A stretch of 64,000 bases of DNA from an uncultured Christensenellaceae bacterium (GTDB taxonomy: Bacteria; Bacillota; Clostridia; Christensenellales; UBA3700): assembly GCA_944383895.1 (NCBI GenBank), contig CALWRH010000004.1, forward strand, positions 17,287-81,286, written 5' to 3'. The translations under genes were made by a program, and so were the position numbers. This document shows, one piece after another, positions 5,427 through 55,749 of this stretch (position 1 is the first letter of the stretch; the number at the start of each line of letters is the position of its first letter). The notes beneath the pieces were generated by a model that did no database searches, had not been told where the DNA came from, and saw only the letters and a program-made list of their open reading frames with translations.

Positions 5427-6045
5427 CGGGACGCTGCTCAATTCGCTCAAAGACCTTTGGGCGGCGGTGAACGGCGCGCTCTGGAGCGTGGGATTGCCTT
5501 GCCGCAGCGAAGAAGAAGTAAGACAGTTCGTCGGCGACGGAGTGGATATGCTGATAAGACGCGCGATAGGTGACGAACAGAATAAATTCGACGATTGCAA
5601 GGCAGCGTTCAAGAAACTCTATGACAAGGACATGCAGAACCAGACGAGGCCTTACGACGGGGTAAACAAGATGCTTGCCGATCTGAAGGCAAAAGGACTT
5701 GAGATCGCGGTATTGTCCAATAAATACGACAGCGCGGTGAAAGCGCTCTGCGATTATTATTTCAAAGATAAGATAAGTTATGCCGTAGGTCAAAAGGACG
5801 GCGTTAAGGTCAAGCCCGATCCCGCTGCGCTGAAAGAACTGCTTGAAAACGCCGGATATACTTCTGACGAGGCATTGTATTGCGGAGACGGAGAGGCGGA
5901 CGTACTTTGCGCGAAAGCGGCGGGGGTGGATTTTATCGCTGCGGCATGGGGGTTCAGACACTACAGCGTGCTTGAAAAGGCAGGCGCGAAAGTATTTGCG
6001 GGCATGCCTGCCGACGTCGCTGCGATAGTCGATACGTTTATGTGA
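5398..6045 (+). CDS. HAD-superfamily hydrolase (phosphoglycolate phosphatase-like)
   Basis: Motif I IIFDLDGTLLNS and motif IV GDGEADV. I prefer the ATG at 5398 (MKKIIIFDLDG) over the track's TTG at 5392. Confidence 0.8.
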   Translation: MKKIIIFDLDGTLLNSLKDLWAAVNGALWSVGLPCRSEEEVRQFVGDGVDMLIRRAIGDEQNKFDDCKAAFKKLYDKDMQNQTRPYDGVNKMLADLKAKGLEIAVLSNKYDSAVKALCDYYFKDKISYAVGQKDGVKVKPDPAALKELLENAGYTSDEALYCGDGEADVLCAKAAGVDFIAAAWGFRHYSVLEKAGAKVFAGMPADVAAIVDTFM

Positions 6046-6086
6046 AAAAGCCGCTCAAGGCGGTGAGATATAAGAGGAGAATTGTT

Positions 6087-8591
6087 ATGAAAAAAGCGAA
6101 ATACGGCAGCGGATTCAAGCTGTTCGACTACTACAAGACTGTAGCTCGCGTCGGCGGAGTTTTTTCCGCTTTATCGCTTTCTGCGATGATCTATGTTATC
6201 TATTACATGTTCTACAACTACATGTACGGAGAACTCAAAGAAGAGCTTACGACTAATTCGGCTCTCAAATATTCTTTGATAGCCGTCGGCATAGTACTTG
6301 CTATAATGGTCGTGGTGTTCGTTGCGTTGAAGATAGCGTCAAAAAGGACGAGCGCGCTCGACGTCGCTCTTATAGTCGTCGGAATCGCGGATATCGTGAT
6401 CATGGTCAAGAAGTTCTCGATCGACGCGAATATAAGAAACGCACAGGAAGTGCTCGTGTATGCGATACCGCTTGCATGCACTGTTATCGTGAGTATAGTC
6501 AGATGGATAGTTTTCTCTCCGAGAAACAACAAACTCATATCCACTCACGGAGAAAAGAGCAACAGCAATTTCAAAGATTATTACATATCCCTGTTCAAGA
6601 AACCTTCGACCTGGTTTATGATCGTCATGGCGCTCGTGATCGCGCTCATGTTTGTACTCGCGCAGGCTGAAGGCTGGCTCAACGTTTTCGATCTCAACGA
6701 ATATTCCAAAACCGAGATGATAAGAAACTGCGCCGTCATGGGCGGTATCGCAGGAGTTCTGTTTATCATCGGACTTGTTATAAGACTGTACAACAAGACG
6801 ATGAACTTTATGGACGCGTATTCCTTCGCGCTCGTTCCCGCAGGCATCGTAATGATCATAAGTTATATAATCGTGCAGCATACGGCTACGCTTATACTCG
6901 CGCTCGGTGCGATAGTGATTTCCTCAGCGTTGCAGATATTGTACGCTAAGACTTCTTATCTCACGGACAGCATAGTATGCGACGAAGAAGAAAAATTTGT
7001 AGAAGAACCCGAGAGCGAAAGCAAGGCTGAAGAACCTTGCTGCGTGGCTGAAGAAAGCAAAGGCGAGGTGTTCGGCGCAGTTGCGGCCGTCACCGAAGAA
7101 CACGAAGATTACGGCGCGACGCTCGAGGCCGTGCAGAAGACTCTCGACAGAATTTACAGACAGAACGAAGAACTCGAGGAAAGGCTGGCAAAAGCCGAAG
7201 TGGCGATAAGATCGCTCGAAGACAAAAACGCACAACTCGAAAAAGAAGTATCGGGACTGAGATCGTCCAACCGTTTCGTTTTGCTCGATATAGAAAAGCT
7301 CATGTCGAGGCTGTCTTATCTCGAAACCAAGACAGGCAAACCTCAGCCTGCGGTAGTCGTAAAAACCGATGCGGGCGAGAACGCGTTCGTGATGAGAGCG
7401 ATAGAGAATATCCTTTCCAGACTTACTTACGCAGAAAGCCTTGTCAGAGGAACTGACGAAGCTGTCGAGTATAGCACGGAGCCTTGCGAGGCAGCGGACG
7501 ATTATCCGTTTATAATGCTTACGCTTGAGAAACTGCTTTCGAGGCTGACCTATGCGGAAAGTCTGCTTGCAAAGGGCGTAACCGTTATTGAACAAGAGGA
7601 GGAGATCGGGGAGCAGCCTGAAGAAGAGGTTGCAGAAGAATCCGAAGAGCCCGAGGAGCAGCCCGAAGAAGTCTTGGAAGACGAAGAAACGGAAGAAGAC
7701 GAGGACGAAGAAAGTCAGGATGAAGAAAGCGCAGAACCTGCAGAAGAGGGCGAAATAACGTGGGAAGAGGTCGCGTCCAATAAACGCCGCGCTAAACCCA
7801 GATTCACCTTTGATATGAAACTGCGTATCGCAAGCGACGACGTGAAGAAGTTCTACAGCGATATCAAGAACGCTTTACTGTCTTACGGCATGCACGCAAG
7901 GATGTCGCGCCATAAAGAAAACTTCAACAAGGGAAGAAACAATATCGCGCGTATGGCGATAAACGGCAAGACGCTCAAAGTATATCTCGCGATAGATCCT
8001 AATGAGATCGATCCCAAGTATTATCACCACCGCGACGTCAGCGACAAGAAAGGTGTGGCGGAACTGCCCACGATGATCAACGTGCGCTCTAAAGTCGCTG
8101 TCAAAAAGGTAAAGATGCTTATCGACAGGATCGCGGAAGAGCTCGTTATCTTCCCCAAGAAATACACTCCGAAGGATTTTGCAGAAGATCTGACTCTTGA
8201 CGGATATTCTACGGTAGAGCGCAAAGGATACGGCTATCTCGTAAATAAAGACGGAGTGGCAAAGAAAGAAGACGTTGACGCTATCCCTGACGATTTTGCG
8301 ACAAATGCGGTCGAATATATATACGCACCGCAGAAGGCAAGCCGTTTCATAAAAGCGGAGCTGTCGCTGAAAGAGCTTGAAAGCAATTTCAAGGACGGCG
8401 ACGTCGTTGACATAGAAAAGGTCAGAGATAAAGGACTCTGCGCGGTAAACGCAAATTATCTGTCGGTTACTGACAGCAATACGCTCAAAAAGAAATTCCG
8501 CGTCTATGCAGACGAATACACCGTTGCAGCGGCAAAGATGATCTGCGTAGCGGGCGGAGAAGCTTATATGATTATTCAACCCGAAGCATAA
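6087..8591 (+). CDS. Polytopic membrane protein with coiled coil, triple SRL(S/T)Y motif, poly-acidic linker and uL15-like C-terminal domain
   Basis: ATG at 6087 is preceded by an AGGAG SD (the track start at 6042 is GTG). About 8-9 hydrophobic helices, then EE/heptad-rich segments. The last 79 aa align by eye to the ribosomal protein uL15 C-terminus. Confidence 0.85.
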   Translation: MKKAKYGSGFKLFDYYKTVARVGGVFSALSLSAMIYVIYYMFYNYMYGELKEELTTNSALKYSLIAVGIVLAIMVVVFVALKIASKRTSALDVALIVVGIADIVIMVKKFSIDANIRNAQEVLVYAIPLACTVIVSIVRWIVFSPRNNKLISTHGEKSNSNFKDYYISLFKKPSTWFMIVMALVIALMFVLAQAEGWLNVFDLNEYSKTEMIRNCAVMGGIAGVLFIIGLVIRLYNKTMNFMDAYSFALVPAGIVMIISYIIVQHTATLILALGAIVISSALQILYAKTSYLTDSIVCDEEEKFVEEPESESKAEEPCCVAEESKGEVFGAVAAVTEEHEDYGATLEAVQKTLDRIYRQNEELEERLAKAEVAIRSLEDKNAQLEKEVSGLRSSNRFVLLDIEKLMSRLSYLETKTGKPQPAVVVKTDAGENAFVMRAIENILSRLTYAESLVRGTDEAVEYSTEPCEAADDYPFIMLTLEKLLSRLTYAESLLAKGVTVIEQEEEIGEQPEEEVAEESEEPEEQPEEVLEDEETEEDEDEESQDEESAEPAEEGEITWEEVASNKRRAKPRFTFDMKLRIASDDVKKFYSDIKNALLSYGMHARMSRHKENFNKGRNNIARMAINGKTLKVYLAIDPNEIDPKYYHHRDVSDKKGVAELPTMINVRSKVAVKKVKMLIDRIAEELVIFPKKYTPKDFAEDLTLDGYSTVERKGYGYLVNKDGVAKKEDVDAIPDDFATNAVEYIYAPQKASRFIKAELSLKELESNFKDGDVVDIEKVRDKGLCAVNANYLSVTDSNTLKKKFRVYADEYTVAAAKMICVAGGEAYMIIQPEA

Positions 8592-11979: not shown

Positions 11980-14550
11980 ATGAAAGAAATAAGACTTCTT
12001 AAAAAACTCGAGCGTGCGCGCAACAAGAAAAAGCACGACAGTCATAAACTGAAAAACGCAGAAAAGTTTTTCCCGACCACAGATACGGGGCTTACTGCGG
12101 AACAGGTTGAGATACGCGTCAGAGACGGTCTTATAAACAAAAAGACCGACAATTCGAGCAAATCATACTTCAGAATAGTTTTCGAAAACATTTTCAATTT
12201 CTGCAATACGGTTACGATACTTCTCGTAATATTGTTGCTCGCGATAGGCGCATGGGATTATACGCTGTCATCGAGCATCATTTTCATCAACATAGCCATC
12301 GGTATAATTCAGGAAATAAAAGCCAAATGGACGGTGCAGAAACTGTCCCTTGTCGCTCAGTCCAAGTGCGACGTGGTTCGCGACGGCAAGCGCGTGAATA
12401 TCAACACAGCGGATCTCGTGCTCGAAGACGTATTCTATATACACGCGGGAGCGCAGGTCCCCGTCGACGCGGTAGTTCAGAGCGGTTACATAGAGGTCGA
12501 CGAATCTATCATAAGCGGAGAATCCCGTCCCGTGCGCAAAGAAGCGGGCGCAAATATCCTTGCAGGCAGCAACGTGCACGAGGGCGAGGCGTGTTGCATA
12601 GCGACGCGCGTAGGAAGGGACAGATATATCGAAGGCGTTTCCAAGGTAGCGAAACGCGTCAGCAAGCCCAAAAGCCGTATATTCTCGGTGCTCGATTCCC
12701 TTATCAAGGGCATAACCGTAGTGCTTGTGATACTTGCGGGATTTTTGCTTGCCGCTGACAGAATAACGGTCGGCGGAGCGTGGAAAGATACCGTGATCAC
12801 GGTTTCGAGCAGCGTGCTGGGCATGATACCTATAGGCATGTTCCTGCTGACTTCTACCGCGCTTGCGGCAAGCGTGCTCAAGCTTTCTAAAAAGCATGCG
12901 CTCGCACAGGATCTGTCGGGTATAGAAATGCTTGCGCTCACCGATACGCTGCTCCTCGACAAGACGGGCACTATCACGGACGGAAAGCTCGAACTCGTTG
13001 AAACCGTAAAGGTCGGGGATATAGAGAGCCCCGTAGACTTGCTCAATACGATAATGAGTGCGACACACGACAGCAAATCCACTGCGCTCGCTCTTTTGCA
13101 GGGAGTGGGAGAAGGCGAGATAATGCCGGTAAGCGACGTGATGAGTTTCAACAGCGCGCGCAAGTACAGTGCGGTTACGCTCGAAGGCGGCGCGACTTAC
13201 GTTCTCGGCGCGCCCGATTTCGTAGGAGTGCTCGAGGGCAAAGTCAAAGAGGCTGTCAGCAACAATTCCTCAAAGGGAAGAAGAAGTATTCTCTTATCGC
13301 GTTTTGACGGATCGATAGCTGATATTGACAAGACGAAGACGGTGCCGTGTTTCGTATTCGCGCTCGAGGACACGTTGCGCTCTAATATCCGTAAGACGCT
13401 CGACTGGTTTTACGAAAACGACGTAGACATAAAGATAATTTCGGGCGACGATCCCGTAACGGTTGCAAATATTGCAGGCAAGGCGGGGCTTAAGAATTGC
13501 GATCACAGCGTCAACTGCGCAGAGCTTGACGAAGAAAGTCTGAGAGCGGTCGCTGCTGATACGGCGGTATTCGGCAGAGTTTCGCCCGAGCAGAAGGCGA
13601 CGATCGTAAAACAACTTCAGAGCGAAGGCAGGACCGTAGGTATGATAGGCGACGGCGTCAACGACGTTCAGGCGCTCAAAGAGGCGGACTGCTCGATATC
13701 TTTCGCAAGCGCAAACGACGTGGCGAGAAATATTTCGAGAATTATCCTTATGGACAACGATTTCGCGTCCATGCCCGATATAGTCAAAGAGGGCAGACAG
13801 GTCATAGGCAATATAGAAAAGGTTTCCGCGCTGTACATTATGAAGAATATATTCGTAATGTTCATGACTTTGCTTTATGCGATAATCACAATAGTTACAA
13901 AAGTCAACAGCTATCCTTTCGATACCAAGAAAATGCTGATGATAGAGTTTTTCGTCATCGGCGTGCCGACCTTCCTGTTTGCGTTGCAACCGACGAAAGC
14001 GCGGCCTAAAGGCAATTTCCTTAGAAACGTGCTGAAATCTTCTCTGTCGGCTGCGGTAGGACTTATTGCGGCTACGGGATTTATAATGATAATGAACGCG
14101 GCGGTAATAGATTATTCTCCGATAGCGTCTACGCCCGAAGCGGTGGAGGCTGTCAAAGCGGTCATGGCTACTTTTGCGCTCACTATGGCGGGATTCGTGT
14201 GTCTGACTGTGATAAGCATGCCGCCCAATAAATTCAGACTTTCGGTCATTGCCGTTATGTTTGTCGTATCTCTGCTTGCAATATGGTTCGACAACAGGTT
14301 TATGGACGGGACTTTCCTCGGCATGAATTTCGTTCCTCTCGAATACGCGTGGTGGATAATAGTAAGTTCCGTTATCGCTCTTGTCGCAATGCTCGGTACG
14401 AAGTGGATAATAACTTATTTCGACAATAAGTACGGAGAAAAGATAGTCGAAGGCATGGACGAAAAAATACGCGACTTCAAACGCAAGAGGATAGAGAAAT
14501 ACAACAAAAGACAAGAGGAGAAAGAAGAGAAGGGTGGACAAAAAGAATAA
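11980..14550 (+). CDS. Cation-translocating P-type ATPase
   Basis: SGES, phosphorylation site DKTGTITDG, hinge GDGVNDVQALKEAD, about 10 TM segments. The ATG at 11980 (MKEIRLL) is preferred to the track's TTG at 11941. Confidence 0.9.
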   Translation: MKEIRLLKKLERARNKKKHDSHKLKNAEKFFPTTDTGLTAEQVEIRVRDGLINKKTDNSSKSYFRIVFENIFNFCNTVTILLVILLLAIGAWDYTLSSSIIFINIAIGIIQEIKAKWTVQKLSLVAQSKCDVVRDGKRVNINTADLVLEDVFYIHAGAQVPVDAVVQSGYIEVDESIISGESRPVRKEAGANILAGSNVHEGEACCIATRVGRDRYIEGVSKVAKRVSKPKSRIFSVLDSLIKGITVVLVILAGFLLAADRITVGGAWKDTVITVSSSVLGMIPIGMFLLTSTALAASVLKLSKKHALAQDLSGIEMLALTDTLLLDKTGTITDGKLELVETVKVGDIESPVDLLNTIMSATHDSKSTALALLQGVGEGEIMPVSDVMSFNSARKYSAVTLEGGATYVLGAPDFVGVLEGKVKEAVSNNSSKGRRSILLSRFDGSIADIDKTKTVPCFVFALEDTLRSNIRKTLDWFYENDVDIKIISGDDPVTVANIAGKAGLKNCDHSVNCAELDEESLRAVAADTAVFGRVSPEQKATIVKQLQSEGRTVGMIGDGVNDVQALKEADCSISFASANDVARNISRIILMDNDFASMPDIVKEGRQVIGNIEKVSALYIMKNIFVMFMTLLYAIITIVTKVNSYPFDTKKMLMIEFFVIGVPTFLFALQPTKARPKGNFLRNVLKSSLSAAVGLIAATGFIMIMNAAVIDYSPIASTPEAVEAVKAVMATFALTMAGFVCLTVISMPPNKFRLSVIAVMFVVSLLAIWFDNRFMDGTFLGMNFVPLEYAWWIIVSSVIALVAMLGTKWIITYFDNKYGEKIVEGMDEKIRDFKRKRIEKYNKRQEEKEEKGGQKE

Positions 14551-15281: not shown

Positions 15282-15938
15282 ATGCCCCGTCCGATTTTAC
15301 GCAGTTACCGCCTGACCGAGGGCGGCATAGATTTCACCGTTGTCAGGAAAAGAGTCAAGAATACCACGATAAGGATAAAAAACGGCGAAGTAGTAGTTAC
15401 CGCTCCGCTTTACGACAGCGACGCAAAGACGTGCTCCGTTGTCGCAAAACATGCAGAGTGGATAAGAAAGCATCTGTCTGCCTCCGAAAAGACAAAAGGC
15501 AAAGTATTGCTTTTCGGGAAACTATACGACAGAGTTGACGAAACTGCTCCGCGCGCCTCGGTGAGTTTCGAAAACGGCATTTGCATCGTAAGAGGAAAGG
15601 ACGGAGAAAAAAGAGAAAAAGCTCTTCTCGGTTTTTACAAAAAAGCGATAACGCCGCTGCTTGAACCGTTGTTCGATAAGTGGCAGAAAACGACGGGACT
15701 TTATGCAAGCAAGGTCGCAGTCACGTCTGCACGTTCGTATCTCGGCAGATGCGAGGTGAATACGCGTATTATAAAAATAAGCTGTCGTCTTGCCGAGAAA
15801 GACATAAGCGTTATAGATTACGTCGTACTGCACGAGCTGTGTCATATACGTCATGCGGGGCATCAGCGCGACTTTTATGCGCTTGTTGCAAAATACATGC
15901 CCGATTACAAAGAAAGAATAAAACTCATGAAAAAATGA
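15282..15938 (+). CDS. YgjP-like (DUF45/M48-type) metal-dependent hydrolase
   Basis: 218 aa. Zinc motif HELCHIRHAGH near the C-terminus. Starts 2 nt after the radC-like stop. Confidence 0.8.
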   Translation: MPRPILRSYRLTEGGIDFTVVRKRVKNTTIRIKNGEVVVTAPLYDSDAKTCSVVAKHAEWIRKHLSASEKTKGKVLLFGKLYDRVDETAPRASVSFENGICIVRGKDGEKREKALLGFYKKAITPLLEPLFDKWQKTTGLYASKVAVTSARSYLGRCEVNTRIIKISCRLAEKDISVIDYVVLHELCHIRHAGHQRDFYALVAKYMPDYKERIKLMKK

Positions 15939-16045
15939 CGATTGGTCAAGCGGCATAAAACGGGAAAAGCTGTATAAAACGGCTCATGAAAACGCTCTTT
16001 ATAAGGGCGTTTTTTTATGCCTTCCGAAATGCGTCATAACGCGGT

Positions 16046-16137
16046 TTATCTACACATATAAATGATTATGCCGGCGGTTGTTTTTATGCGGAGTTATCCA
16101 CAAGAACGGATGTTTTGGTGGATAAGTCTGTGGATAA
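16046..16137. promoter_or_regulatory. DnaA-box cluster (2 perfect and 2 one-mismatch 9-mers)
   Basis: TTATCTACA at 16046-16054. TTATCCACA at 16094-16102. GGTGGATAA at 16117-16125. TGTGGATAA at 16129-16137. Confidence 0.6.
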
Positions 16138-16207
16138 CTGTTCAATAATGCCGCTTTTCGCAAATTTTCGCATGTTTGCGACAAGTTTTGCAGACGGGAG
16201 AAATTAT

Positions 16208-16891
16208 ATGGTTTTTATAGGAAAAAAGACTGTGATCTGCGTAGTTGCCGCAACGCTGGTTTTCGCATTGACGGCGGTAGGAGTATTTACCGTTGCAAAG
16301 ACGGTTGCGAACTCTTATGTTCCTCTCGGCGCGGTAGTCGTTATAGACGCCGGGCACGGCGGTATGGACGGCGGAGTGGTTGGAGTAACGGGGACAAAAG
16401 AGAGCGATCTCAATCTGAAAATAGCTATGTGTCTTGGCGATATACTGACTGCAAAAGGCGTATACGTCGTTTATACGAGAGAAAACGAAAATTCGCTTTC
16501 AGACAGCAAGAGGGAAGATATGAAGATGCGTGCGGAGATAATAAAGGAAAGTCGCCCCGACTGCGTCGTAAGTATACATCTCAACAGTTACAGCGACGCT
16601 GCGCGCAGAGGCGTGCAGGTATTTTACGACGATACGGGCAGAGGAGAGTCGTTTGCCTCGCTTATGCAGGAAAGGCTTAACGCGACGATAAATTACCGAT
16701 ACAGCAAGAGGAGCGACCTTGCTCCGCAATCGGGTGATTTCTATATCACCAAATGCGCGGCGGTACCGTCTATAATTATCGAGTGCGGTTTTATATCCAA
16801 CGCAGAGGACGAAAGTCTGCTGAAAACTGAAAATTTCAGGCGTGAACTGTGCAGGGAGATAGCAGACGGCATAATATTAGCCGTAGCGTAG
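16208..16891 (+). CDS. N-acetylmuramoyl-L-alanine amidase (Amidase_3, CwlD-like)
   Basis: VVIDAGHGGMDGG, SIHLNS, IIECGFISN. N-terminal signal-anchor. ATG at 16208 with a GGGAG SD is preferred over the track's TTG at 16115, which lies inside the DnaA-box cluster. Confidence 0.85.
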   Translation: MVFIGKKTVICVVAATLVFALTAVGVFTVAKTVANSYVPLGAVVVIDAGHGGMDGGVVGVTGTKESDLNLKIAMCLGDILTAKGVYVVYTRENENSLSDSKREDMKMRAEIIKESRPDCVVSIHLNSYSDAARRGVQVFYDDTGRGESFASLMQERLNATINYRYSKRSDLAPQSGDFYITKCAAVPSIIIECGFISNAEDESLLKTENFRRELCREIADGIILAVA

Positions 16892-35789: not shown

Positions 35790-37112
35790 TTATTCCATAG
35801 CCTCTTTAATAGCCGCGGCAAGCGACAGGCTGTCCGTCGTATCGTAATGCGGGCATACGGAGAGAAGTCCCGCTATGCCGTAGTCGTAACAGAACGCCGC
35901 CATATCCCTGACAAACAGATATCCGTTGAATCTTATTTCGGTGTCGCCTTCTTTGACGACGTTGCCGTATTTTCCGAGTTGTTCTGCATAGTCGCAATAC
36001 TTATACAGGGTTTCCGTTTCTTTGTCGTAGCTGTAGAAAGGAACGGTGAGGTGTGTTTTGGATTTAGGCAGATCGCTGTCCTTTACCGTTTCGAGAGTTT
36101 CGCATACCGTTTCCGAAAAAGCAGACTTGTTATTGTCGTCGAGATTGGGGGTAAGGACATAGAAGTTGTCGATGTAATTTTTGGACTGCTTATCGAAAAA
36201 TCTTGCGTCGGGGTTGATAAAAATACCTATTTCGTACGGCGACATAACCTTGCCGCGAAGTGTATCGATAAAGTCGTTGTAAGAGCCGTAATCGAAGAAG
36301 TTGATGCCGCTGTCGAAACCGAATACGACGCCGTCAAAGTCAGAACCCTTGAGAAGTTCCGAAACGTTGGTCGCAAGAGTTTCTGCATTGTTCTTGAACG
36401 CATTGTGACGCACGTCGTTTTCGTCTTGACCATCTGACGGTTCAGGCAAAATGACGATATGGATATTTGCATCCTGATTGAAAGAGCGGATCTTTCTGGT
36501 AACGTCGATGAGTTCGAACTTGCCTACGTTGAGATTGCCGCTTGAATCGAAGGTCGCAAGCGGATATATTATATAATCGGTATAGTTTTTCAGAAGAGTG
36601 GTGTCCACGCCGTCGAAAGGATTGCCGTTTTCGTTGAGTCTGACAAAAGCGGTGGAGTGGAAGTTACGGTTTCTCGAAAGGTTGTAAATGCCGATATTCG
36701 TCAGCTTATACGTGCCTTTGCAAGATGTGATTTTTACCGTTACGGAAGTGGCGGTGGTAGAACCGAGATATACGTTTCTCATTTTGCCGATGTTGTCCTG
36801 AGAATATACCAGCTCGTCGTTGACGTATATTTCAAAACCCGTAACGTTGGTGCCGTTTTCGTAGAGGAATATTTCGTTGAATTCTACTGCGCTGTCCCAC
36901 GAGATCCTGACCCATGCCTCGCCGGATGCTTTCAGAGAGAAGTTTATCTTTCTGTCGCCGTTGCTGTATGTGAACTTTGCATAATCGGCGAGGTTGGTAG
37001 CGTTGATTTCAAAAAGGTTTTTAATATCGCTGCAACCTGCGAGTACGCTGCACAGTAAAGCGAGCGTAAAAACAATAACTATTACAGATACGATCAACGA
37101 CTTCTTTTTCAT
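35790..37112 (-). CDS. Lipoprotein with discoidin/CBM32-like N-domain and a GH18-like domain with a degenerate catalytic motif
   Basis: Signal peptide plus lipobox LAGCSD. An N-terminal beta-sandwich-like segment of about 120 aa. FDGVVFGFDSG aligns to the GH18 motif DGxDxDxE but lacks the acidic residues. Confidence 0.8.
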   Translation of the reverse strand: MKKKSLIVSVIVIVFTLALLCSVLAGCSDIKNLFEINATNLADYAKFTYSNGDRKINFSLKASGEAWVRISWDSAVEFNEIFLYENGTNVTGFEIYVNDELVYSQDNIGKMRNVYLGSTTATSVTVKITSCKGTYKLTNIGIYNLSRNRNFHSTAFVRLNENGNPFDGVDTTLLKNYTDYIIYPLATFDSSGNLNVGKFELIDVTRKIRSFNQDANIHIVILPEPSDGQDENDVRHNAFKNNAETLATNVSELLKGSDFDGVVFGFDSGINFFDYGSYNDFIDTLRGKVMSPYEIGIFINPDARFFDKQSKNYIDNFYVLTPNLDDNNKSAFSETVCETLETVKDSDLPKSKTHLTVPFYSYDKETETLYKYCDYAEQLGKYGNVVKEGDTEIRFNGYLFVRDMAAFCYDYGIAGLLSVCPHYDTTDSLSLAAAIKEAME

Positions 37113-37245
37113 AGTAATTTTATTATATCATATTATCCGTCAAAACGCATAAAAAATTTATAAAAATCGAAATTAGCAAGTTTTTACGCATTTGTTATGA
37201 CTGTTTACAGGTTTCTGCGGCTGAAATAATTGCGTATCGCAGAGT

Positions 37246-37269
37246 AAAGGCGGCGTAAAAAACGCCGCC
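37246..37269 (-). terminator. Intrinsic terminator of rubrerythrin
   Basis: GGCGGCG-N7-CGCCGCC (37249-37269), with TTTAC following on the minus strand. Confidence 0.6.
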
Positions 37270-37317
37270 CGATTGTGAGGGGGATTTATGTGCATAACGC
37301 ACACGGGTATGAAAAAA

Positions 37318-37914
37318 TCAGTTGTTGTCGTTGAGCTTGAGCATGACTGCACCCTGTTTTGCCTGACAGAGAGGGCATACCTTCCATGCCTCTTTCGAGG
37401 TAGCCTCGTAGCCGCAGTCGGCGCACTTCCATTTTACAGCCTTGGGACGGCAATAGAGTTTGCCTTGAGAGAGCTGATTGTAAAGATCTGTAAACAGCTT
37501 GTTGTGGCATGTTTCAACCTGTACAACGTTGTCGAAAAGTCCCGCGATATCCTTGAAACCTTCTTTTCTTGCGGTTTCGGCAAAAGCGGGATAAATTCTC
37601 GTTGCCTCTTCGTTTTCGTCATCCGCCGCGAACTTGAGATTGTCGACAAGGTTCCACTTTTCCTTGAACGGATATTCCGCGCATATCTCCACAGAATCGA
37701 TTGCAGCGTTTTTATCTGCCGTCTGTATAAAAGAGTAGAACATGCGCGAGTGATGAAATTCCTGAGTGGATACCTGTTTGATCATTTTCGCAAGTTCGGT
37801 ATATCCTTCCTGTTTCGCGCCGTAAGCCATATACTCGTAGCGCGCCTTTGCCATACACTCTCCCGCAAAAGCGCGGGCGAGATTCTTAAAAGTTTCACTG
37901 TCTTTGAGTTGCAT
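37318..37914 (-). CDS. rbr: Rubrerythrin
   Basis: 198 aa. Ferritin-like di-iron N-domain plus a C-terminal rubredoxin-like CADCGYE...CPLCQ. GGAGG SD. Confidence 0.9.
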   Translation of the reverse strand: MQLKDSETFKNLARAFAGECMAKARYEYMAYGAKQEGYTELAKMIKQVSTQEFHHSRMFYSFIQTADKNAAIDSVEICAEYPFKEKWNLVDNLKFAADDENEEATRIYPAFAETARKEGFKDIAGLFDNVVQVETCHNKLFTDLYNQLSQGKLYCRPKAVKWKCADCGYEATSKEAWKVCPLCQAKQGAVMLKLNDNN

Positions 37915-38062
37915 AATTACCTCCGTCGAGCTAAGTATTGACGGATTTTTTTGCGATATTCATTTGCTTTTATAAAATGACGTTAGCGTGCCGTCGTTGA
38001 AAACACTAAATTAATTGTTCGGCATTTTATAAGGTATAAGTATTGTAGAGATAATTTGAAAT

Positions 38063-54330: not shown

Positions 54331-55749
54331 TTGGACAACAAACAATATCTGACAAAGATGGAAAAATCCGGCTACGGGCTTGCTGCTTTGGGGCAGGGAG
54401 CTATGTATGCCATGATGACTTCTTGGCTGAGCAGGTTCTATACGGACGTGCTCGGTCTTGAGCTGTTGTTTGTAATGGGACTTATGTGGGTAGCCCGCCT
54501 TGTGTTCGCGATCGGCGATCCGTTGATGGGCGTACTTGTGGATAACACGCGTTCTAAATACGGCAAAATGAGGCAGTATCTGCTTTTTGCGCCGTTTATC
54601 GTATCTCTTCTCAGCGTATTCTTGTTTATAGATTTCGGCCTCGACATGACGGGCAAGATGATCTATGCGTCTATAACCTATATGGTATGGGGCGTGGCTT
54701 ATGCCGTGTGCGACGTGCCTTTCTGGGGACTTCCTTACGCGATGACCCCCAACGTTACGGAACGCGACAAATTTCTGTCTTTCGCGCGCACGCTCAACAG
54801 TATCGGAGGAGCGCTACCCGTGGCAGTGGTCGCTTTTCTTATCGGAGACAGCATCTTAGGCTTAAGAAAAGGACTTATGGTCGGCGCGATACTGTTCGCT
54901 GCGATAGCGATCGTACCGTTTTCAATGACGTTCTTTTTTACGAGAGAGAGAATAGAGCCGCAAAAAGAAAAACTCAGCTTAAAACAGTCTTTCAGGATAA
55001 TAGGCAAGTGCAAGCCGCTCGTGCTCGTAATGCTGTTCGGATTGCTCAGTTTCGGCAGATATATGATACAGGCGTCGTATACTTATGCTGCAGATTACGT
55101 CTTTACGTATTACGAAAACGCCAACGCGTTTACCGCTTTTGTCTATGACATGAGACAGATACTCGGAGCAGCGTTGATAGGCATAGGCATGTTCCCGTCA
55201 ATGATAATAATGCCTAAACTGCTGAGGAAATACAATACGCGCGTTATCGCGCTCGGTGCGGGCATATTCTCGGGCGCCGTACTCGGGCTTTTCTTCCTGA
55301 TAGGAACGCTGACGCATTACAACTATTATATAGCTTTGCCTTTCTTCTTCCTGAGCGGACTGCCGCTCGGTATATACAACGTCATAACTTTCTCTATGGT
55401 GGGAGAGTGCATCGACTATCTGCAATACAAGCTTGACATACGCGCAGAAGGACTTGCGTCATCGTGCATATCTTTTGTGGGAAAGCTCAGCGCCGCGTTT
55501 TCTGCGGGAGCGATACCGCTCGTACTCGAAATAGCCGATTACGTTCAACCCGTTACAGAAAACGGCACGACCGTGCTTATGGAGCAGACTTCGGGCACAA
55601 GGACAGCGATTTTCATGTTGCTTACGCTTATTCCAGCCGTCAGCCTGTTCGTATCCACGCTGCCGCTCCTATCGTACGATCTCGTGGGCAGGAAAAAGAG
55701 GGAGATCGAAGAGGCTCTCGAAAAGAAACGCGTGATAAAAGAAGAGTAG
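54331..55749 (+). CDS. GPH-family MFS glycoside/cation symporter
   Basis: About 12 TM segments. TTG at 54331 lies 8 nt after an AAGGAGAG SD. The ATG at 54358 is an alternative start. The track start at 54271 is the promoter -35 hexamer. Confidence 0.8.
   Translation: MDNKQYLTKMEKSGYGLAALGQGAMYAMMTSWLSRFYTDVLGLELLFVMGLMWVARLVFAIGDPLMGVLVDNTRSKYGKMRQYLLFAPFIVSLLSVFLFIDFGLDMTGKMIYASITYMVWGVAYAVCDVPFWGLPYAMTPNVTERDKFLSFARTLNSIGGALPVAVVAFLIGDSILGLRKGLMVGAILFAAIAIVPFSMTFFFTRERIEPQKEKLSLKQSFRIIGKCKPLVLVMLFGLLSFGRYMIQASYTYAADYVFTYYENANAFTAFVYDMRQILGAALIGIGMFPSMIIMPKLLRKYNTRVIALGAGIFSGAVLGLFFLIGTLTHYNYYIALPFFFLSGLPLGIYNVITFSMVGECIDYLQYKLDIRAEGLASSCISFVGKLSAAFSAGAIPLVLEIADYVQPVTENGTTVLMEQTSGTRTAIFMLLTLIPAVSLFVSTLPLLSYDLVGRKKREIEEALEKKRVIKEE

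Follow-up and report, generated by a model that had tools for sequence, protein, structure and literature searches.

A non-origin DnaA-box module conserved upstream of a CwlD-like amidase gene in uncultured Christensenellales

Organisation of the locus

The DNA analysed here is a stretch of 64,000 nucleotides from an uncultured Christensenellaceae bacterium (contig CALWRH010000004.1, positions 17,287 to 81,286), referred to below as the window. It carries four DnaA-box 9-mers at 16046-16137, a DnaA box being defined as a match to the consensus TTATCCACA with at most one mismatch. These boxes occupy the spacer upstream of a gene coding for a CwlD-like N-acetylmuramoyl-L-alanine amidase, and they recur in a fixed arrangement upstream of the same gene in related lineages. 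Judged from these comparisons, they very probably constitute a real, selected DnaA-binding module that is not a replication origin. A first-pass annotation of the window had placed the four boxes, and its coordinates and strands are all correct. In the following list, the boxes come first, followed by the putative promoter elements and by the remaining features of the spacer and its borders; boxes 2 to 4 are termed the triad, and the four boxes together the module.

16046..16054, plus strand: DnaA box 1, TTATCTACA, one mismatch; within the putative promoter spacer and touching the -10 element
16094..16102, plus strand: DnaA box 2, TTATCCACA, perfect; opposed member of the triad, mean column identity 0.97 over 20 lineages
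16103..16116: spacer of 14 nt between boxes 2 and 3; core AAC-N4-GTT invariant, length invariant
16117..16125, minus strand: DnaA box 3, GGTGGATAA (TTATCCACC on the minus strand), one mismatch; first of the tandem pair, identity 0.96
16129..16137, minus strand: DnaA box 4, TGTGGATAA (TTATCCACA on the minus strand), perfect; second of the tandem pair, identity 0.98
16034..16040, plus strand: putative sigma-E-type -35 element, TCATAAC, agreeing with 6 of the 7 positions of [TG][AC]ATA[AT][AT]; candidate promoter assignment
16055..16062, plus strand: putative sigma-E/K-type -10 element, CATATAAA, agreeing with 7 of the 8 positions of CATA[CT]A[AC]T
15282..15938, plus strand: YgjP-like metallopeptidase gene, upstream (Pfam PF01863, E = 2e-38); left boundary, outside the element
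15988..16017, plus strand: intrinsic terminator that closes the upstream transcription unit; stem of 12 bp with a U-run behind it, folding energy -19 kcal/mol (z = -5.85), equalled by none of 200 shuffles
16158..16181, plus strand: inverted repeat TCGCAAA...TTTGCGA; predicted helix in the leader fold, just 5' of the ribosome-binding site
16208..16891, plus strand: CwlD-like N-acetylmuramoyl-L-alanine amidase gene; 227 amino acids, N-terminal membrane anchor and Amidase_3 domain (Pfam PF01520, E = 3e-42)

The whole window contains 20 boxes with at most one mismatch, as compared to 10.1 +/- 2.9 in dinucleotide shuffles. The cluster packs four of them, two being perfect, into 92 bp, while second-order Markov simulations (n = 300) yielded a maximum of two boxes per 100 bp and never reached four. 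The first-pass statement that the cluster is unlikely to be random is thus borne out, as 0 of 300 simulations exceeded two boxes per 100 bp. Its companion statement, that a perfect 9-mer should occur by chance far less than once in such a window, was too strong: the expectation is about 0.5 per 64 kb, counting both strands. The significance of the cluster therefore lies in the clustering and not in single perfect boxes. A third perfect box does exist in the window (54537-54545, minus strand); it is solitary, lies inside an MFS transporter gene and fits the chance expectation of about 0.5. The 16046-16137 cluster shares two features with extra-origin DnaA-box clusters (DBCs): several boxes packed into a short intergenic stretch, and a location outside oriC.

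A larger cluster of 1.8 kb, obtained by adding the boxes at 14351, 14402 and 15457, was considered and rejected, the boxes at 14402 and 15457 showing no conservation in relatives. The remaining one, a one-mismatch box TTATCCACC at 14351-14359 in the 3' end of a P-type ATPase gene, recurs at about -1860 from the amidase start in three related loci (L002, L003 and L005; L numbers designate the loci and contigs of the comparisons). This recurrence is probably due to coding constraint, the P-type ATPase protein being 85-90% identical.

The amidase gene is separated from the terminated YgjP-like gene by a spacer of 270 bp. Since the upstream unit is strongly terminated, the amidase needs a promoter of its own within this spacer. 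Its start codon is ATG 16208: a GGGAG ribosome-binding site is found at 16196-16200, the N-terminus M(V/F)F(I/L)xKK common to the amidase orthologues begins at this ATG, and an independent gene call on a public contig gives the same 227-residue product. The TTG at 16115, listed as the start in the open reading frame (ORF) track, does lie inside the cluster as the first-pass annotation had remarked, but it is merely a mechanical start. With the true start at 16208, all four boxes are intergenic. The architecture of the protein (N-terminal anchor, Amidase_3 domain, 227 residues) is compatible with CwlD, and TIGR02883 (CwlD) is its top NCBIfam match and by far the best-scoring family. The score of 158.3 bits stays under the equivalog cutoff of 221.55, hence the label “CwlD-like”. 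Together with the Pfam assignment, this confirms the placement of the cluster in the 5' region of a CwlD-like amidase gene. Just upstream of the ribosome-binding site, near the position of the 16158..16181 inverted repeat, L009, L014 and L023 possess other complementary arms (TCGCGC/GCGCGA), as observed by eye.

Conservation of the module

Amidase loci were collected with one genome per species, and 80 loci were returned. The closest ones belong to metagenome-assembled genomes (MAGs) of uncultured Christensenellales, at 71-77% identity. At least three boxes are found within 600 nt around the gene start in 25 of these 80 loci; given a background of 0.37 boxes per kb, the probability of this is 0.0015 per locus. 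The triad geometry, a plus-strand box, 14 nt, a minus-strand box, 3 nt and a second minus-strand box (offsets 0/+23/+35), is unchanged down to about 45% amidase identity in the Christensenellales lineages, and the 3-bp tandem gap is invariant in all lineages. Box 1 is located at -48 from box 2 in the nearer lineages, and it is a perfect TTATCCACA in L002-L005. Whether the boxes are kept in relatives was the check proposed with the first-pass annotation: both the boxes and their spacing are maintained far beyond close relatives.

An alignment of 20 lineages (A1), from which column identities were computed per box and flank, sets the boxes apart from their surroundings. Boxes 2, 3 and 4 display identities of 0.97, 0.96 and 0.98, as compared to 0.57-0.63 for the flanking spacer. 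Variants of box 2 are confined to TTWTCCACA; more generally, the box variants stay within the DnaA consensus (TTTTCCACA, GGTGGATAA) and are mostly non-compensatory. On this alignment, the boxes are under selection, and purifying selection aimed specifically at them lends indirect support to binding by DnaA.

The genes upstream of the module change, while the module itself is kept. Upstream synteny (P-type ATPase, RadC, YgjP) is limited to the five closest genomes, L001-L005. Beyond these, the upstream gene differs and is often a divergent GH20 gene, while the module is still located 57-270 nt before the amidase start. In L013, the module is separated from the amidase by three genes, namely a small ORF and those of an MBOAT protein and an AlgX-like protein; together with the amidase, they presumably form an operon headed by the module.

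Clusters of a different kind occur in other Clostridia. Four Lachnospiraceae-like loci (L039:1691-1753, L041:1639-1702, L050:1767-1829 and L064:1712-1774) share a conserved three-box cluster with all boxes on the plus strand and offsets of 0/+53/+62, about 4.3 kb upstream of the CwlD-like amidase; in L039, the sole annotated locus of the four, it is located between an NlpC/P60-SH3 gene and a DUF1858 gene. Three MAGs labelled Thermotaleaceae, Emergencia and Senimuribacter (L055:791-1078, L058:6665-6789 and L068:1773-1897) harbour 3-7 boxes directly downstream of the CwlD-like amidase.

A putative promoter linked to the triad

The block surrounding box 1 (16034-16062) reads TCATAAC-gcggTTTATCTACA-CATATAAA. 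It agrees with 13 of the 15 positions of the sigma-E pattern [TG][AC]ATA[AT][AT]-14 nt-CATA[CT]A[AC]T, with a spacer of exactly 14 nt, and few non-box columns of alignment A1 are as conserved as those of the CACATATA block. Further comparisons bear on this promoter-like element: a sigma-E-type match with the same 14-nt spacer is located at -82 to -84 from the tandem pair in about 16 of 19 Christensenellales lineages; sigma-E-type matches (at most 2 mismatches) are found on the coding strand upstream of the gene in 40 of 78 amidase loci, versus 15 of 78 for the reverse complement (Fisher p = 4.7e-5); inside the amidase gene, the same 78 loci contain a single one. The match lies about 30-50 nt from the start codon in loci without the module, and about 175 nt from it in loci with the module, the triad being located in between. 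The distance from the triad to the promoter-like block is fixed to +/-1 nt, while that from the triad to the start codon varies from 57 to 270 nt. An element locked to a promoter-like block but variable with respect to the start codon is the pattern expected of a regulatory unit. As box 1 falls in the spacer of the putative promoter, the triad would belong to the predicted leader.

Other sigma factors were considered as well. A sigma-70 promoter was rejected: a consensus scan of positions 15800-16400 gave none, and the -35-like TTGCGA/TTGACG block downstream of box 4 has, by eye, no usable -10 before the start codon. The sigma-G and sigma-K -10 patterns do not fit the CACATATA block, while the sigma-E/K pattern CATAYAMT fits it at 7 of 8 positions. 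In L008, L010, L012, L018, L020 and L021, the site corresponding to box 1 (window 16046-16054) is degenerate and reads TTCGACA or TCGACA, followed by the CACATATA block; we take the TTCGACA at this position to resemble a Spo0A (0A) box.

The promoter of B. subtilis cwlD, a cortex gene dependent on sigma-E and sigma-G, offers a comparison. The gene is under sigma-E control and is repressed by SpoIIID (PMC517825); the window gene belongs to the same protein family and has a mother-cell-type match upstream. In sigma-E promoters, 12 +/- 1 bp separate the 8-nt and 10-nt elements, and a T occupies position 4 of the -35 element (PMC517825). The window differs from B. subtilis cwlD in possessing a predicted leader of about 140 nt, which carries the triad between the promoter match and the gene.

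The triad at other sites

Metagenome contigs were also scanned from the DNA side, using the exact pattern TTATCCACA-N14-TGTGGATAA-N3-TGTGGATAA. The 64 matches span GC contents from 25% to 62%. Those of the amidase type are few: a downstream amidase was confirmed in L088, L094 and L116, and L110 has the same flanking sequence. At the other sites the triad keeps different company. It adjoins rnpA (Pfam-confirmed) and a YidC-like ORF (no Pfam confirmation) in L093, and parB in L119. In a gut lineage of about 60% GC, it is located in the gidB(rsmG)-parA spacer (L086:2958-3001 and 12 near-identical contigs, including L092, L097, L106, L109, L121, L123, L131, L137, L138, L140 and L142), with an extra degenerate box within the 14-nt gap. 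In L085, L087 and L096 it is found on phage-like contigs beside a large terminase, SSB and a VapE-like protein, which suggests that phages also use this DnaA docking arrangement. From its sequence contexts, the triad appears to be a generic DnaA docking unit, reused where DnaA is expected to bind. Its reuse at rnpA, parB, gidB-parA and phage-like sites provides independent support for DnaA being the binder at the amidase gene.

Proposed function

Extra-origin DnaA-box clusters are a known kind of element; what is new here is the partner gene and the host group. To our knowledge, thorough work on them is confined to B. subtilis, E. coli and Streptomyces. The closest parallel is provided by the DBCs of B. 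subtilis, likewise intergenic clusters of consensus boxes outside oriC in a Firmicute, near DnaA-regulated promoters and also proposed to act as titrators (PMC3245932). The window cluster differs from them in its neighbour, a CwlD-like amidase gene, and in having only four boxes in a rigid triad-plus-one layout. No DnaA boxes are reported at B. subtilis cwlD: in its main text, the in vitro survey of DnaA binding across the B. subtilis genome (PMC4447404) names neither cwlD nor an “amidase”, and our literature search found no paper linking DnaA with cwlD.

The first-pass annotation had left open a regulatory or a titrating role. Of these two, the regulatory role is favoured, since the cluster is tied to a single gene as well as to a promoter-like element. 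In the model that we hold to be somewhat better than an even bet, the module would be a DnaA operator and roadblock on a putative sporulation amidase promoter, with DnaA titration as a by-product. With active DnaA in plentiful supply, the protein would fill the two consensus boxes and spread cooperatively to their weaker neighbours. Transcription would start near 16068-16071, with box 1 in the promoter spacer against the -10 element, so that DnaA bound to box 1 would occlude the putative promoter. DnaA bound to the triad would form a roadblock at about +25 to +68 of the transcript. The amidase would thereby be held off until DnaA activity drops; a few molecules of DnaA would incidentally be sequestered by the module. 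In B. subtilis, DnaA acts from neighbouring DBCs as a repressor of dnaA, ywlC and yydA and as an activator of sda (PMC3245932); repression of the amidase, the simplest reading, would parallel the three repressed genes with their adjacent box clusters. DnaA as the binder, the sigma-E dependence of the promoter, and repression rather than activation are the parts of this model that we infer. Some Christensenellaceae have been reported to form endospores (PMC12536801).

Several observations weigh against this model, on the side of the promoter, of the gene or of the module itself. With both strands counted, about 19 sigma-E-type matches of no more than 2 mismatches are found per window, making any single match weak evidence, and all lineages that bear the module have an A at the last -10 position, where the consensus has a T. 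L008, L018 and L020 display, by eye, a sigma-A-like TTGAAA-17-TAAAAT downstream of the triad; the boxes would then lie upstream of the promoter, in an activator-type geometry. As to the gene, the amidase does not reach the equivalog score by which TIGR02883 defines CwlD, and the majority of Christensenellales MAGs are predicted not to sporulate (PMC12536801). Several Christensenellales-like lineages (L007, L015-17 and L024-28) lack the module, as do L030-33, so that it is dispensable. Its linkage to the gene could partly reflect the shared ancestry of the block instead of a functional link. Finally, the invariant AAC-N4-GTT core, which the DnaA boxes do not explain, could be the site of a second protein or a DNA-shape requirement.

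The conserved module suggests that, in an order of uncultured gut Clostridia, amidase expression or the free DnaA pool may be tied to replication status. It is maintained with a single cell-wall/sporulation gene of the Christensenellales over deep evolutionary distances. If DnaA does control the amidase, there would be a direct link in Clostridia between replication status and spore-cortex or cell-wall remodelling, and the recurring triad would give a concrete sequence rule for DnaA assembly outside origins. A bolder version, which we consider speculative and rather unlikely, is that DnaA directly gates a mother-cell sporulation gene in Clostridia, through one box in the spacer of a sigma-E promoter and a DARS-like triad (DARS, DnaA-reactivating sequence) in the leader behind it. 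This would be a new kind of replication-to-sporulation checkpoint, making cortex-amidase expression conditional on the replication initiator standing down, and the triad might be a widespread, unnamed DnaA assembly unit related to the DARS core. We know of no Clostridia that possess the Sda checkpoint protein of Bacillus.

Alternative explanations

The alternative that survives best, although we judge it unlikely, is a pure site of DnaA titration or inactivation, of the B. subtilis DBC or E. coli datA type, that restrains re-initiation and whose position before the amidase is accidental. Such a role has a precedent: deleting six extra-origin DBCs leads to early initiation in B. subtilis, and a single DBC partly rescues this, even at an ectopic position (PMC3245932). 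It would also accommodate the presence of the triad in unrelated, origin-proximal contexts, and the clusters of other Clostridia, which lie downstream of the amidase or about 4 kb from it rather than at promoter-like positions. However, four boxes represent very little titration capacity, and the cluster is kept with one gene, in one orientation and at a distance fixed to +/-1 nt from a promoter-like block, while the neighbours change. Moreover, no origin-proximal marker genes are found within 16 kb upstream or 48 kb downstream of the cluster.

Boxes 2 and 3, together with the AAC...GTT core, also form a 32-nt palindrome, which could be read as a hairpin of the mRNA leader or of the DNA, or as the operator of a dimeric regulator other than DnaA. 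Folding energies of -18.4 kcal/mol (z = -3.9) and -48.7 kcal/mol (z = -4.4) are obtained for the palindrome and for the predicted leader, respectively. The AAC-N4-GTT at its centre does not vary and belongs to no DnaA box: within the 14-nt spacer (A1 columns 93-106), AAC and GTT are 95% identical and the other positions 30-80%. L006 even exhibits a compensatory change, TTTTCCACA being paired with TGTGGAAAA. Yet pair counting in A1 reveals no covariation above shuffles (0.065 versus 0.057, with 111 of 500 shuffles as high), and the single variable box pair shows 4 broken pairs against 1 compensatory change. There is no reason to expect that a helix would preserve 3-4 copies of the exact DnaA consensus across lineages, nor does it need boxes 1 and 4, and the same box geometry is found with unrelated spacers at origin-proximal sites and in phages. 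An Rfam search returned only noise (E >= 0.26). The hairpin or riboswitch reading of the palindrome was thus rejected, its stable fold being accompanied by no covariation above controls. As the variants remain inside the DnaA consensus without covariation, recognition by a sequence-specific protein explains the data better than a structural helix, and we consider the palindrome reading as a whole improbable.

Closer to DnaA biology, the triad can be compared with DARS elements. The E. coli DARS1 core, read from MG1655, is AGTTATCCACT-5 bp-TGTGGATAA-3 bp-TGTGTATTA, with boxes at 208 (plus), 222 (minus) and 234 (minus) in L146; its window counterpart is AGTTATCCACA-14 bp-GGTGGATAA-3 bp-TGTGGATAA, with boxes at 16094 (plus), 16117 (minus) and 16129 (minus). 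The window triad has the three-box orientation of the DARS core, one opposed and two tandem boxes, and it shares with DARS1 the 3-bp tandem gap and the AGTTATCCAC flank on the 5' side. A modelled head-to-head DnaA dimer spans 19-26 bp (PMC6868365), and the centre-to-centre distance in the window is 23 bp. DARS1 is likewise located in the upstream region of a gene (bioD-uvrB). Upstream of the same amidase gene, L034, L042 and L043, which are more distant Clostridia, read TTGTCCACC-5 bp-TGTGGATAA-1-TGTGGATAA-3-TGTGGATAA, with a gap of exactly 5 bp between a degenerate opposed box and the first of the tandem boxes. The window and all Christensenellales lineages, however, have an opposed gap of 14 bp instead of 5 bp, which shifts the rotational phase by about 50 degrees, and it is on account of this defining gap that the element is not classed as a DARS. 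Furthermore, box III of DARS1 is degenerate whereas both tandem boxes of the window are at or near consensus, and a gene-locked and promoter-locked position is not needed for DARS function. That function depends on ADP-DnaA biology, which may not apply to Firmicutes. The DnaA of S. aureus and B. subtilis is reported to exchange nucleotide rapidly unaided, and we know of no demonstration of DARS activity outside E. coli and its relatives. A DARS-like reactivating sequence thus appears a shade less probable still than the palindrome reading.

That the cluster is the chromosomal origin of this lineage, or one half of a split origin, is hardly credible and was rejected on GC skew, gene content and the absence of DnaA-trios and of an AT-rich element. 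The resemblance consists of four strong boxes, including a closely spaced, co-oriented tandem pair near consensus (boxes 3 and 4) with a 3-bp gap as in the box pair of the basal unwinding system (BUS; PMC8287927), and of the divergent genes that leave the spacer in some lineages (a minus-strand GH20 gene and a plus-strand amidase gene). In the window, the genes flanking the spacer are co-directional. The GC skew is about +0.10 on both sides of the cluster and positive across the whole window, and its sign likewise does not change from one side of the module to the other in about 24 related loci; this holds for essentially all loci that bear the module. Annotation of essentially all large ORFs of the 64 kb with Pfam and NCBIfam detected no dnaA, dnaN or other origin-region gene; the gene content consists of transporters, glycoside hydrolases, an Rnf operon and metabolic enzymes. 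NCBIfam identified no sporulation or replication gene among ten ORFs of the window, six of them without an earlier Pfam match and four newly scanned. A BUS comprises at least three DnaA-trios within 16 bp of a box and an adjacent unwinding region (PMC8287927). On its TGTG side, box 3 is followed by 14 nt (AAG AAC GGA TGT TT) that lack both a TAG and three NAN trios in succession, and that are bounded by box 2. The two boxes turn their CACA/TGTG ends towards each other over these 14 nt, leaving no room for three or more DnaA-trios and an unwinding region. The window thus differs from a BUS by the lack of a trio array or AT-rich region on this side, by the opposed box found there 14 nt away, and by the absence of a GC-skew switch with adjacent origin genes. 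On each of these points the first-pass annotation was right: no dnaA or dnaN lies nearby, no AT-rich unwinding element stands beside the boxes, and the cluster is extra-origin rather than oriC.

Other features of the window

Two further regions deserve a mention. The 849-residue ORF at 6042-8591 has weak, probably spurious Pfam matches (Ribosomal_L27A, Tropomyosin). The start of an unannotated 217-residue ORF (37288-37941) is accompanied, at 37109-37297, by two sigma-E-type promoter matches, at 37109 and at 37128, and by a DnaA box with one mismatch on the minus strand (37289-37297).

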